Source of the DNA: Octopus vulgaris
Lineage: Eukaryota
Assembly (NCBI GenBank): GCA_951406725.2
Contig: OX597817.1
Coordinates: forward strand, 149,110,001 to 149,174,000
Length of the DNA: 64,000 bases
Reading direction: 5' to 3'
The position numbers and the translations under genes were made by a program. The notes below the pieces were generated by a model that was not told the DNA's origin, ran no database searches, and worked only from the letters and a program-made list of their open reading frames with translations. Shown one piece after another: positions 1,580-40,137 of the stretch. Every line of letters begins with the position of its first letter. Position 1 is the first letter of the stretch.

Positions 1580-3266
1580 TTCAATAGGACCGTTTCGGCC
1601 AAGTCGTAGAGATATAAATGACGATGGGTGTTTGAATAGGATAGTATGGAGGGAAGCAGATGGGAGAAGTATTTGTGGTTAAGAGGGAGAGAAACGTTTG
1701 CTTGAAGTGATGGTATAGTAGTGAAATTGAAAGCCCAGTGTTTCCCAATGAGGGTCGTGAGAAAATTGGAGTGGGGCATGCGTTAGCATGGGTTGTAAAA
1801 ATATTTGTCAGTGACTTGAGCGCACACTTGTCAATACGAGTTCATTTGGTTTGTTGTTTGTGTTTGTGTGTTGGACGTTGGTTTTTGTTGCTGCGTTGAA
1901 AGACAATGTCCTCAGACCTTAGCCGGTCTGAGTTATCTTCAGCAGAGGAGGAGCTCGCGAGGACATCGTAGAGATGGACGGGATGTTGGAAAAGTCAAGG
2001 AGTTTTGCAGAGGTCACGGAGAGGAACCGAAGGGAGTTGGACTTGGCTGGTCTGAAAGATTATGAGAAAAAGTTACAGAGGTAGGAGGGGACGTGAGGCT
2101 GTCGCCCCCCAAAGGAATTATGGCGAGGATGGAGAGGAAAACGAGCACCTATAAGGTGTTCTCGTTAAAAGGAAAAACGGCTGAGGAGGTGAAAGCTGAA
2201 ACGGAAAAGGCGCTAAGGGAGAAGTCTATAGAGATAATATATATCACCAAAGGAAAGAGATATGGGACAATGGTCGTCCAATTTAGGACAGCTGAAGAGG
2301 CTATGAGGCTGACGAGTGTGACGGTGAAAAACGAAGTAGTGCTTCTGCCCACATACCTGGGAAAAAAACTTCCAAGGTGAGGGTTGAAGCAATTCCAGCG
2401 GATATAGCGGCAGCTGTCCTTGTTGGAAGCGAGGAGAAGGTAGCTGTCCTCCAAGACACAGAAACAGAAGAAGAAGGGTGGAAAGGAAGGGCTCTTGAGT
2501 TAATTATTCAGACGGAGGAGGGCCAACTAGAGAACTTGGCAGAGAACGGTGGCGTTGGGGGAAATCGTACTGAGAGTGTAGGTAGAGGACAGAGTACAAC
2601 GTTGTTTTAAATGTGGTCAAAAGGGCCACATTAGAGCATACTGTCCCCTACAGAGAACAATGGCTGAGGATATAGTTGTGGAGACAGAAGAGAAAAGAGA
2701 GGAAGAAAGAAATAGACGGAGGAAACGAGAAAAAGGAAAGTTGCAGAGCGCGGAAGGAGAAGGAGGAAAAAAAAAGGCACTGAGTACGATGTGGTACCCC
2801 AATCCAACTCCATCACAACCATGACCACTCAGACCCACCCTCCGCATACAGACACCAAATCCACCCACCCCATTTCCGCACAAGAGAAAAAAGAAAAAGA
2901 AAGAACAGGCAACACAAAATTTAGAAGACCCCACCCTCCCGGTTAAAAGGTTACGAATGCATGACGGAGAGAATGTTATCACTAAGTGATGGGGAATAAG
3001 GGAAAAGGGCTGGACTAAAAGAGAAAAAGGACTCAGGATCTAGAGGCAGCGAGTGGTGTTACTCAGTGTGGGGTGAGTAGCACACTCTTCATAATATCAT
3101 TTTCAGATATTCATATTATCATATTTTAATTTGTTCTTCATGTTCATTTTCATATTCATTCATTATATCATATTTCATTTTTATATTTTTAATTGTTATA
3201 TGTCCCCACATGTGTTGTAGTGTTCCCTTTGTGTATTGCCTTTATGGCAAAATCATTGAAATAAAG
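1580..3266 (+). mobile_element. Non-autonomous L1/Tx1-like retroelement (ORF1 only, decayed)
   Basis: GC-richer block holding a broken ORF1-like frame, a T-rich 3' region and AATAAA at 3260-3265. No RT or endonuclease is visible. The 5' boundary is approximate. Confidence 0.55.
2120..2989 (+). pseudogene. Frameshifted gag/ORF1-like protein with CCHC zinc knuckle
   Basis: ORFs 2093-2380 and 2377-2610 join through frameshifts into CFKCGQKGHIRAYC (2603-2644, CX2CX4HX4C), then an E/K/R-rich tract, an in-frame TGA at 2822 and KRKKKKK. The N-terminal part (VVQFRTAEEA) looks RRM-like. Confidence 0.75.
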
Positions 3267-7466: not shown

Positions 7467-8050
7467 TTATGTTTGACTTTTACTTTGTATTTGTACATGT
7501 TGGTTCCATGTATCACCCAGAGATCTCAAGAGACAAGTTAGAGGTTCATATAAGTATTATGCCTAGGGTGTCATATATTTGATTTTGTAAATAATATTGT
7601 CCATTTTAAAATTTGGGATTACATAGAGAGTATTTTACTTGGAATATGGGCAACAGTTATTGTTTTTGTCTTCAGGTTCCACATTTTGCCAATTTCTGTT
7701 GCAATATCTTTATAATTTTTCAGTTTTTGGAAGGTCTTCACAGATACATTTATGTTGATTGGGGCAGCCATGTCAATTTGAATGAGATGAGTGAGATGTG
7801 ATCATTTTCAAGCACCGGACATGGTTTGTGTTCCCATTAGATTCTATCATGGCGCAGGTCCAGGCTTTTGCAAATTACCCAGTGCTGCCCTATCATACCT
7901 GTTGAGATACTCTGTAGGCGCAAGAAGACTGCTCATTGAGACAACATGATCAATTGTTTCATTTTGTTGTTGACATACACGACACGTTGGGCTGCTGCCG
8001 TTCTTTAATATGTTGGCTTTGTAGTTCCTCGTAGGTAGGCATTGATCTAC
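7467..8050 (-). mobile_element. Second, more decayed R4/Dong-type copy
   Basis: LPTRNY..CRVCQQQNETIDHVVS (zinc knuckle)..APTEYLNRYDRAA. Its 3' UTR is similar to that at 6695-6870. Confidence 0.85.
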
Positions 8051-8278
8051 TATTATTATTATTGCTATTATTATTTTTTTCCTTCTTTCTTCAAACTTTC
8101 TTCCATTTCTCGCCGAGTGTTTTCGTACACCTAGGGCAGAGAAGCTCATTTTATGCATTCACGGGTAAAGTATGTATTTTAAAAAATTACAAATATATTC
8201 ATGAATAGGTGTTGTTTTCACGGCGATAATGCTCATCAACGGTACATGAGTTCTTCCAGTTAACACGATTTTTTGCAC

Positions 8279-9672: not shown

Positions 9673-9843
9673 ACATTGACATATATGCGTTGAACACGAT
9701 TTCAGAAGTGTTCTGTATTGATGAACAAAATCGTTACAGCATTCAAAGGAAACGTCCCTTTCTTCCAGCTGTTTCGTAGTTGGTAGTTTCATTTTGCATC
9801 AAGTTGAATTTTGTGAGAAATTCTAAGCTAAGTTTTCTCTTTA

Positions 9844-9932
9844 TTCACCTGAAGAAAACGGTTTTTTTTTTCTTTTTGTATGATGTAACGCTTTTGTTTA
9901 TCAATAAACACGTTTGAAACAGCTGTAGTGAA
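9844..9932 (+). ncRNA. Type I hammerhead ribozyme, intact core
   Basis: Stem I TTCAC/GTGAA, CTGAAGA 9849-9855, stem II AAACG/CGTTT, GAAA 9916-9919, palindromic stem III ACAGCTGT, GUA cleavage after 9927. Confidence 0.85.
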
Positions 9933-33809: not shown

Positions 33810-34240
33810 GATTTTGTGACAGGGATGAAATGTGACCGCGTCTTCGTCTTTTGGAAGCGATGATTCAATCCGTCGAATACCATCACACATCTTCTCGTAG
33901 GCCTAAGAAGGATTTCGATGGGGAGCGACCCCGAGTGAATGCTTTTTCGAAAGACAAATACGTCATCTTCCTTGATTTTCTGGAGAATAGTTGTACTGTG
34001 AATACCGAGGACTATATTCAGTTACCCAGAAAACTTAGAGAGGCTGTTAGGAGGAAGAAACAAAACAAGAATCTGAAAAACTTCCACATTCATTATGAAA
34101 CGCATCCGATCAATGTCATAGAAAACCGAATTGTAGAAATCCGAACACATCCTCATTAAATTTGCATCTACCCACGCATAGCTTCTTCCTTCATTCAGAG
34201 ATGACTTTGAAACGTCTAACTTTGGTAAGAGCAACAACAT
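33810..34240 (+). pseudogene. Mariner transposase catalytic-domain remnant
   Basis: FVTG..QSVEYHH.SS.RPKK..VIFLDFLE..TVNTEDYIQL..KLREAVRRK matches the mariner catalytic region. Confidence 0.8.
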
Positions 34241-37046: not shown

Positions 37047-37112
<66 letters not shown>

Positions 37113-37256
37113 AGTAATTGAATGAATTATCTTATTAAGGATAATTCTAAAGATAACCGATACCTGGGTAGCAAATTCACATCAGAAAGAACACGGTTGA
37201 AGCTACGTCCCTAGGGCATAGACTACGTGTCTTCGTGCGAAAATTTGTATGTTTAT

Positions 37257-37545
37257 TTTAAAATTATAAGTATATGAAAGAATGGAGTTGAACGACTAGT
37301 TAACAAATATCCCTTATTCTCGACATATGTTTCGATATCATTATCGACACGGGCTCCTTGAGAGCGGTCAGCTAAATGTTTTTTGTGCATTTGGATATCG
37401 ACATAAGTTCCTTGATTTTCCTGATGAGTAATCTGCATAATGTACTCCTTATTCCTTCGGAATTAGGAATATGCAGCCTTCGAAACATATGTCGAGAATA
37501 AAGGATATTTGTTAACTAGTCAACTCCATTCTTTCATATATATAA

Positions 37546-37552
<7 letters not shown>
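37257..37552. repeat. About 75-bp inverted repeat enclosing a hammerhead (inverted pLTR-like)
   Basis: 37257-37334 and 37480-37552 are near-identical reverse complements. The element lies between (TA)n tracts. Confidence 0.9.
37409..37505 (+). ncRNA. Type I hammerhead ribozyme with canonical GUC site
   Basis: Stem I TCCTT-g-ATTTTC / GAGAAT-a-AAGGA, CTGATGA-G at 37421, long stem II (CTGCAT/ATGCAG, ATTCCT/AGGAAT), C-GAAA, palindromic ACATATGT, cleavage after C37493. Confidence 0.9.
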
Positions 37553-37599
<47 letters not shown>

Positions 37600-37651
37600 T
37601 ATGTATATATATATAAATATATATGTATATATTAATATATATATATATGTA

Positions 37652-37684
<33 letters not shown>

Positions 37685-37770
37685 GTAGGTCCCGGGTTGA
37701 TTCGGGGTTAACCACAGTAAATAAGGTACTCAATACATAGCAGAGTAAAATTAATTTATTATATAGAAGG

Positions 37771-37821
37771 AGCTTCTACAGGACTAGAACTGTTTCATTC
37801 AAGAGAAATCTTCAGGAAGCT
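37771..37821 (-). ncRNA. Type I hammerhead ribozyme, left arm copy
   Basis: Exact reverse complement of 39855-39905. Confidence 0.8.
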
Positions 37822-38410
37822 AGTTAACAAGAATTGTATTGCCATTTATACATTTAGGCAGGTTTAAAGGGGTGTTGGTGGGGGACTTTTTGGGGTAGGC
37901 ATAGCGCAAAATATCATACTTGGGGGAGTGGTCAAGGAGTCAGTGTTAAATTAGATAGAAGAATAAATAAAAAATAAAAAATAAAAATATATATATATAT
38001 AAAAAAAGGGGGAATAGAGTTTTAGGTAAATAAGGAGATTCTCACTTATACCTATGCACATATGTATACATATATACGCACGCATACAAACATATATACA
38101 TATACATACACACATACATACACACACATATATATATACATATATATACACTTACACATACATATACATATCTACACATACACATATATGTATACATACA
38201 CACACTCACATGCATACACGTATACACACATGTATATATACACACACACGACCACACATACATATACACACAGAAAAATATATATACACATACACACACA
38301 TACTCACATACACGCATACACACACAAATCCACACACACACATGCACACAGCACACTAGTCCCTATATACACATATATACACATACACACATATATACAC
38401 ACACATACAT

Positions 38411-38462
<52 letters not shown>

Positions 38463-38871
38463 GTGTACCTATGCATACCTACACATACACACATATATAT
38501 ATACACATACAAATACAGACCCATTCCCTAATTTTAATTTTATTATCTTCGTTTATTACTTTTGTTATCTTTGGCCGCTTGGTCACAAACATCTTGGCTA
38601 TGACAGCCAGTCCATTTATCTGTCTACTGGAAAACAAGCACTCATTCACTCACGCACACTCTTTAGCACGTACACTCACTCATTCGTACACTCATACACA
38701 TACACGCACGCACGCGTTATATTCATACATACATACATCTACATACATTAACGTATATACACATACGTACGCGTACCTACAGATTCATGTCTACACTCTT
38801 AGAAGGCTAGTCTATACATATACACCAATAAATATAAATACACACACATACACGTACACCTACATACAAAT

Positions 38872-38924
<53 letters not shown>

Positions 38925-39198
38925 CATATATATACACATATATATACATACACATACATACATACACATATATACACATATACACACATATACACATATA
39001 TACACACATACACATACATACATATACACACATACACATACATACGTATACATACATACATACATCCATACATCCATACATCCATACATACATACAAAAG
39101 TAATAAACGAAGATAATAAAATTAAAATTAGGGAATGGGTCTGTATTTGTATGTGTATATATATATGTGTGTATGTGTAGGTATGCATAGGTACACAC

Positions 39199-39262
<64 letters not shown>

Positions 39263-39854
39263 ATGTATGTGTGTGTATATATGTGTGTATGTGTATATAT
39301 GTGTATATAGGGACTAGTGTGCTGTGTGTGCATGTGTGTGTGTGGATTTGTGTGTGTATGCGTGTATGTGAGTATGTGTGTGTATGTGTATATATATTTT
39401 TCTGTGTGTATATGTATGTGTGGTCGTGTGTGTGTATATATACATGTGTGTATACGTGTATGCATGTGAGTGTGTGTATGTATACATATATGTGTATGTG
39501 TAGATATGTATATGTATGTGTAAGTGTATATATATGTATATATATATGTGTGTGTATGTATGTGTGTATGTATATGTATATATGTTTGTATGCGTGCGTA
39601 TATATGTATACATATGTGCATAGGTATAAGTGAGAATCTCCTTATTTACCTAAAACTCTATTCCCCCTTTTTTTATATATATATATATTTTTATTTTTTA
39701 TTTTTTATTTATTCTTCTATCTAATTTAACACTGACTCCTTGACCACTCCCCCAAGTATGATATTTTGCGCTATGCCTACCCCCAAAAAGTCCCCCACCA
39801 ACACCCCTTTAAACCTGCCTAAATGTATAAATGCCAATACAATTCTTGTTAACT

Positions 39855-39905
39855 AGCTTCCTGAAGATTTCTCTTGAATGAAACAGTTCTAGTCCTGTAG
39901 AAGCT
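39855..39905 (+). ncRNA. Type I hammerhead ribozyme, right arm copy
   Basis: AGCTTC-CTGAAGA-T-TTC-TCTT-GAA-T-GAAA-CAG-TTCTAGTC-CTG-TA-GAAGCT: 6-bp stem I, GUA cleavage after 39899. Confidence 0.8.
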
Positions 39906-39976
<71 letters not shown>

Positions 39977-39978
39977 CC

Positions 39979-40137
39979 AGGCGTAGATGTGGCTGCGTGG
40001 TAAGAAGCTTGCTTTTGAACCATATGATTGCGGATTAAGTTCCACTCTGTGGTACCTTGGGCAACTGTCTTCTACTCGAGCCGACCATGGTATTGTTAGT
40101 CGATTTAACAGACGGAAATTGAAAGAAGACCGTCTTA
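39979..40137 (+). mobile_element. SINE family B, 5' part
   Basis: GGCGTAGATGTGGCTGCGTGGTAAG head and ACCTTGGGCAAC. Confidence 0.75.

Follow-up and report, generated by a model that had tools for sequence, protein, structure and literature searches.

The foldback at 37685-39909 of the window, the whole 64,000-nucleotide stretch of Octopus vulgaris DNA that was analyzed, is by sequence comparison a copy, truncated at its 5' end and inserted in a (TA)n tract, of a young Penelope-like element (PLE) of the Hydra clade, and its form as a whole is probably the product of an integration in which two primers started copies of the element at two different sites, an account to which we give a probability of roughly 0.72. 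What is new here is the pairing of one short and one tailed end in nearly every insertion that could be scored for it, with the tail on either arm and with both arms derived from one parent haplotype.

The foldback, its two hammerheads and its one-sided extension are all real, and the hairpin measures ~2.2 kb (Table 1). In reverse-complement alignment the arms are 37767-38565 (799 nt) and 39094-39909 (816 nt); they differ by two substitutions (37842/39834 and 38461/39198) and by three indels, all in simple runs, the sizes being 14 bp for (TA)n, 2 bp for CA and 1 bp for a G run; outside these indels they are 99.7% identical. The original prediction of near-identical inverted arms with few indels, identical hammerheads at both outer ends (the 51 nt are the same in each) and a left-only extension between (TA)n flanks is borne out by these measurements, with the extension now measured at 82 nt. 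The window copy is made up of the final ~1.4 kb of a PLE unit (minus strand) and an inverted 0.8-kb copy; the 528-bp spacer is continuous with the left arm, and the match to the full unit in another locus, L077, is 97.7% over 1425 nt. Because of this alignment the spacer can be read as element UTR and the extension as the leader that precedes the ATG. The tail ends at +92 to +96 past the predicted cleavage site, and in full units the ATG lies at +139; the inverted arm stops 10 nt past that site, earlier than the +23 that is the mode of the parent family. There is no ORF in the 5'-truncated window copy, and on each strand only one hammerhead is in sense, reached last by a read-through. Both flanks being (TA)n, a target-site duplication cannot be read at the foldback, a limit also noted for PLEs in a passage of PMC8557442.

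Table 1. Features of the foldback and its flanks (window positions)
Feature	Position	Strand	Basis
(TA)n target, left flank	37536..37684	.	Flank sequence
Long (direct) arm, truncated at its 5' end: hammerhead and tail with the final ~1.4 kb of the 3' UTR	37685..39096	-	97.7% over 1425 nt to the L077 unit
Tail	37685..37766	-	In full tandem units, equals the leader between hammerhead and ORF start
Putative type I hammerhead, predicted cut between 37777 and 37776	37771..37821	-	Core and stems
Spacer, unpaired; 3' UTR found in the long arm only	38566..39093	-	L077 alignment; same sequence in L042
Inversion junction, 3-nt overlap common to both arms	39094..39096	.	Overlapping alignments to the L077 unit and direct reading
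Inverted arm: second 5'-truncated 3' UTR copy, short end	39094..39909	+	Arm alignment and comparison with the L077 unit
Putative type I hammerhead, identical copy, predicted cut between 39899 and 39900	39855..39905	+	Core and stems
(TA)n target, right flank	39910..39976	.	Flank sequence, read directly

The 291-nt outer end of the foldback has 1170 candidates in the genome, and the best 40, which were scored, are all 99-100% identical over the 291 nt. We fetched ~9.9 kb around each of the 39 other places with this end (the tail-selected set), and an ORF search with 119 candidates, the best 40 of them scored, gave 39 further stretches (the ORF-selected set); all locus counts refer to such top-scoring copies and are not a genome census. 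In some tail-selected loci the long UTR, rich in microsatellite, has an RT-endonuclease ORF upstream of it. The ORF-selected stretches show tandem units in the order hammerhead, tail, ORF, 3' UTR, hammerhead, with a hammerhead-to-hammerhead period of 4782-6127 nt in seven loci; such tandem units form the pLTRs of EN+ PLEs. Single open frames of 722 aa (713 aa from the ATG) in L075 and 718 aa in L090 both contain YRDDG and VY..YIG, and that of L075 also has RWR at aa 38, DKT at aa 116, CxCX5C at aa 567 and CxxC..E..N..CxH at aa 667; a CX2-5CxxC match was not found in the L075 protein. There is no CxxC between VY and YIG, and on the position that we take the CCHH cysteines to occupy, the CCHH motif is absent. 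Relatives of the L075 protein share 37-52% identity with it among the best 120 of 1117 matches, and PF01541 is present in some of the homologs; a Pfam search of L042 gave a weak RVT_1 match (E=0.028) and no GIY-YIG match. The outer ends run into (TA)n in nearly all ORF- and tail-selected loci, L090 being an exception.

The protein motifs, the (TA)n target and the type I hammerhead support assignment of the parent to the EN+ PLEs of the Hydra clade, whose described traits include DKT rather than DKG, an N-terminal RWK, a CxCX5C linker and CxxC/CxH around E and N (PMC8557442). The Penelope-like insertion with inverted copy and one-sided tail that was originally proposed can accordingly be narrowed to this clade by its motifs, and the proposal that it was recent holds in relative terms, given two substitutions per 799 bp between the arms and 39 top copies at 99-100%. 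As in the C-terminal EN+ PLEs described for the clade (Craig et al., 2021, PMC8557442), a single ORF joins RT with GIY-YIG at the C terminus and carries DKT, CxCX5C and CxxC/CxH, with (TA)n as target; likewise, their hammerheads are of type I near the 3' end and in many rows of File S2 have a stem II with unpaired U/U at its base. The parent family differs from these sources in having RWR, a conservative variant, instead of RWK, a stem III loop of 8 nt compared with 1-3 nt in the Hydra rows, and units of 4.8-6.1 kb instead of the “generally <3 kb” given for the clade (PMC8557442), the excess over 3 kb being due to the microsatellite-rich 3' UTR (2.5-3.9 kb in the three units measured). Hydra-1_Obim, the only Hydra family from octopus in the supplement of PMC8557442, represents another family, since its protein and hammerhead are plainly different when compared by eye. 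In the literature searched, with Repbase, Dfam and subscription papers outside its scope, we found no account of the parent family or of end-pair counts, and this family, with its unusually long microsatellite UTR, is apparently undescribed so far.

Most ORF copies (35/39 scored runs; L042, L064-L108) have a C run that is shorter by 1 nt and breaks the frame between RT and endonuclease. A programmed frameshift or a non-autonomous subfamily is disfavored as the cause, as the two ORF copies in which the run is interrupted are in frame and contigs of runs X7 and X13 (three contigs only) show the longer run; the short run is probably a homopolymer undercall in the assembly, by which many open copies would be hidden. 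X7 and X13 are contigs that we guess to be RNA; of the raw-read runs, X21 covered L075 with 8 reads and X22 with 22. The 1-bp difference in the G run of the window arms may be an undercall too.

Each putative hammerhead consists of a 6-bp stem I, CUGAAGA, GAAA and the GUA cleavage triplet, a stem II with an unpaired U/U followed by 3 bp, and a stem III of 4 bp with an 8-nt near-palindromic loop, predicted at -12.8 kcal/mol as a self-dimer against -1.4 kcal/mol as a monomer. No hammerhead match came from Rfam, whether the window was searched at the gathering score or 39700-39990 at E<=10, so that the call rests on core and stems; its E-value matches were of (TA)n to miRNA models. The hammerhead core, the loss of which in family members had been named as a test of the original prediction, is intact in 146 of the 149 parent-family stretches that cover the motif. 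Past the predicted cut, the 12 nt at 37765-37776 (-), like those of L075, L090 and L031, are predicted to form a hairpin that covers the cut site at the expense of stem I; even with the far arm left out, P for this hairpin is ~0.98 in typical copies and the window's left arm. The right arm is without the competing hairpin because it ends at +10, and is predicted to take the hammerhead fold if transcribed without the left arm. The cut-site hairpin was found post hoc, and P(stem I)<=0.05 occurred in 4/400 shuffles of the 12 nt but in 97/400 when 90 nt were shuffled. In most contexts a hairpin farther downstream is predicted to win over stem I; as a general rule a blocking hairpin had to be rejected, being strong in the parent family and context-dependent in a second Hydra family. 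Hammerhead cleavage is rejected as the source of element 5' ends, none of the 32 starts lying at the cut site (the nearest are at +9 and +26). The hammerheads are carried along uncut in the insertion, and the copy is non-coding and of no apparent function. At window 9843-9930 (+) lies a third motif that resembles a hammerhead, its stem II being long and weak.

The original prediction implied that a foldback of this kind is rare, which is not borne out: an inverted hammerhead end is found within ~8.6 kb in 28 of the 39 tail-selected loci, and the foldback is the usual form of the parent family. All 28 inverted ends are short and none is tailed; no inverted end is in range in the remaining 11 loci. 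The length of the inverted arm ranges from ~60 bp to several kb across loci. The 3' ends of the family are bimodal (n=132), with 60 at +17 to +27, 67 at +96 and 5 elsewhere, the count at +96 being inflated because loci were tail-selected, and both end types before (TA)n recur in contigs of other samples, namely X7 (short) and X13 (both). Among the ORF-selected loci, 16 simple insertions have both ends visible: 10 are short/tail, 4 tail/short, 2 short/short and 0 tail/tail; left out were 22/39 loci, 17 with one or no outer end visible and 5 composite. Ends are thus mixed in 14/16 (binomial p=0.0016 against 0.49), four of these 14 insertions having their tail on the inverted arm.

The same pairing is found in a second Hydra family, reached through a homolog and represented by 20 fetched loci (L131-L150), which has 43% protein identity to the parent family, many open frames of 727 aa, a unit of ~3.35 kb and the RWK motif. 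Its end sites are at +37 (short) and +108 (tail), ~70 nt apart as in the parent family, and all 13 insertions with both ends visible are mixed, 7 one way and 6 the other, the tail being on the inverted arm in 6/13; seven of the 20 loci, with one end visible, were left out. Mixed pairs in the two ORF-selected sets total 27/29. The tails of the two families align better than 1997/2000 shuffles (3/2000 score as high), with the hairpin-bearing stretch in common. Overlap with TA is found at both ends in the parent family; priming by (TA)n microhomology is a weak candidate, as the second family overlaps by only 1-2 nt at its ends.

Both arms of one insertion derive from one parent haplotype. In all 33 loci that could be scored for it (37 tried) the arms carry the same three-site haplotype, and only 4 of the 42 arm differences over 11,608 sites fall at shared polymorphic sites. 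This corresponds to 0.34/kb for real arms against 2.6/kb (1.4-4.2) for re-paired ones, the control being 300 re-pairings within subfamily, and on these grounds an origin of the arms from different parent copies is rejected for the parent family. Post-insertion gene conversion is another possible explanation of arm similarity. Many junctions lie inside microsatellite, which blurs their position; in the clean set of 12/42 junctions, eight overlap by 0-4 nt and four have gaps of 3-189 nt.

We propose that a protein of the element would cut both DNA strands in the (TA)n target and that a separate cDNA would be primed by each cut end, with RNA of a single source locus as template, the tail end as the start of one cDNA and the short site as that of the other; joining of the two at a 3-nt microhomology would then leave head-to-head copies of the 3' end of the element. 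The arrest of the two ends at two fixed points is likely to reflect the start, by each cut strand, of its own copy of the element RNA. Both arms have the polarity of cDNA growing inward from a target end, and a PLE protein from the anole is reported to cleave and extend both strands in vitro and is predicted to form a dimer (PMC11167929); taken together, polarity and in vitro extension make one cDNA per cut strand the simplest account. According to the same report, synthesis starts within the RNA at two sites, one on either side of the tail, and uncleaved RNA is the main substrate (PMC11167929). The fixed end sites, their pairing, the common parentage of the arms and the short junction overlaps are shown by the sequences; priming on two strands, RNA as the template of both arms and joining by microhomology are inferred. 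As to the template, the genomic products fit RNA and second-strand DNA equally well for the second arm. The two short/short insertions among 16 and the 11/39 tail-selected loci with no inverted end in range count against the two-primer account.

It is unlikely, if the most serious alternative, that one arm alone was copied from RNA and that the other arose by fold-back self-priming or by a switch of template, either to nascent DNA or to an antisense transcript. Such an origin explains the common parentage of the arms directly, and a passage of PMC3846280 invokes self-priming, with an antisense template, to account for Penelope inversions of the head-to-head type; however, a fixed site of its own for the tail-free end does not follow from it, it leaves unexplained the tail on the inverted arm (4/14 in the parent family, 6/13 in the second), and the window junction has a 528-bp unpaired spacer where it would lead one to expect a palindrome.

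On the two-primer account a more specific scheme may be considered, tentatively and at odds a little short of even: asymmetric double priming in Hydra-clade PLEs, in which a dimer would depend on a structured leader of ~70 nt, its two edges being obligatory starts that cannot be exchanged, one per cut strand, on RNA of a single locus, the tail hairpin (found in two families) would serve as a loading signal, and the cut-site hairpin would keep the template of the parent family uncut. If this is true, the end-pair counts (27/29 mixed) are an in vivo read-out of a mechanism that the in vitro work left open. The single locus in the window, one among many similar non-coding copies, matters little; the parent family offers clean counts on how tails and inverted ends arise in PLEs and, being young and having some open ORFs, is a system for testing the two-primer model.

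That the foldback is a functional RNA of host or element, its read-through hairpin being kept as an ADAR or Dicer substrate or as a ribozyme switch, is very improbable. A read-through from either strand is predicted to form 797 long-range pairs with the hammerhead fully paired, the antisense copy coming first and the sole sense hammerhead last. The original prediction of long dsRNA in which the hairpin competes with the ribozyme therefore stands in so far as the predicted fold buries the hammerhead completely on either strand, while its ADAR/Dicer part is conditional on transcription. The predicted 797-bp duplex speaks for function, as do the exceptional rate of hyper-editing in octopus and the heavy editing of a lizard Penelope, both in passages of PMC5625713, which also report editing of palindromic repeats. 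Against it, the 150/154 filtered ORFs of the window that were scanned gave no host gene family, there is no sign of conservation beyond the youth of the family, arm lengths from ~60 bp to several kb are what random truncation predicts, and incidental editing, if the locus is transcribed, would not equal a selected function. The scanned ORFs, among which short exons of a host gene would be missed, gave only transposon fragments and weak matches; the fragments, at window 2582-2821, 7850-8158 and 33836-34156, match zinc knuckle, zf-RVT and mariner-type transposase. Part of the long dsRNA behind the high editing in octopus might come from families of this sort, whose copies go in as kilobase hairpins already formed.

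An assembly artefact, in which one arm was duplicated in reverse, deserves practically no credence: the arms are 99.7% alike outside indels and the assembly seems to undercall homopolymers, but by the internal evidence of the sequence alone (unmirrored flanks, ends of the two natural types of the family, and private differences between the arms in substitutions and tract lengths) it is excluded, and the same layout with different arm lengths is seen in 28/39 sibling loci. Equally negligible are two independent insertions in one (TA)n, for which the collection of PLEs by such tracts might speak (an unrelated foldback adjoins at 37110-37545, and five ORF-selected loci are composite) but not the common parentage of arms that meet at a 3-nt overlap with no (TA)n between them, and a self-spreading MITE- or retrozyme-like hairpin unit, against which every sibling has its own junction and no tandem monomer array of the retrozyme kind is present.

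The layout of the foldback is already known for the Hydra clade: Penelope-13_HM, for which the supplement of PMC8557442 annotates nt 1-966 as an inverted copy truncated at its 5' end and gives one hammerhead per strand, has the same layout at nearly the same size. More generally, an inverted 5'-truncated copy with a one-sided tail is published for EN+ PLEs (PMC8557442; PMC3846280), and those with an inverted pLTR resemble the parent family in the truncated inverted copy, the tail at one end and the microhomology junctions; their tail is given as 30-40 bp, compared with ~70 bp here, and the passages on EN+ PLEs state its one-sidedness without counts (PMC3846280; PMC8557442). In Schistosoma, two opposite-strand hammerheads 100-700 bp apart are described (PMC4209133). 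PAc, the Poseidon element of the green anole that is the in vitro precedent, is similar in its two internal starts bounding the tail, its AT-rich target and a hammerhead that is uncut in inserted copies, but belongs to another clade and has the tail within the ORF, whereas in the parent family the tail is leader that precedes the ATG at +139 (PMC11167929). The non-LTR retrozymes reported in bioRxiv 10.64898/2026.07.22.740005 are likewise non-coding and PLE-derived, with a type I hammerhead; they are described as tandem monomer arrays, whereas the foldback consists of one inverted pair, joined at a junction peculiar to its locus, and its parent is autonomous, and no tandem array of short hammerhead monomers was found in the window or in the tail- and ORF-selected loci.

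The unrelated second foldback at 37110-37545 abuts the left (TA)n flank. Its arms are short, its left-only extension is ~145 bp, and it has one whole type I hammerhead (core 37421, +) with a long stem II and a palindromic stem III; there are 2087 candidates for it in the genome, and no match to the loci of the second Hydra family was found. Nested or stacked PLE insertions sharing (TA)n tracts are also seen in L071, L074, L085, L105 and L139, a set that includes ~200-bp mini-foldbacks and a tail of the parent family beside an end of the second family.
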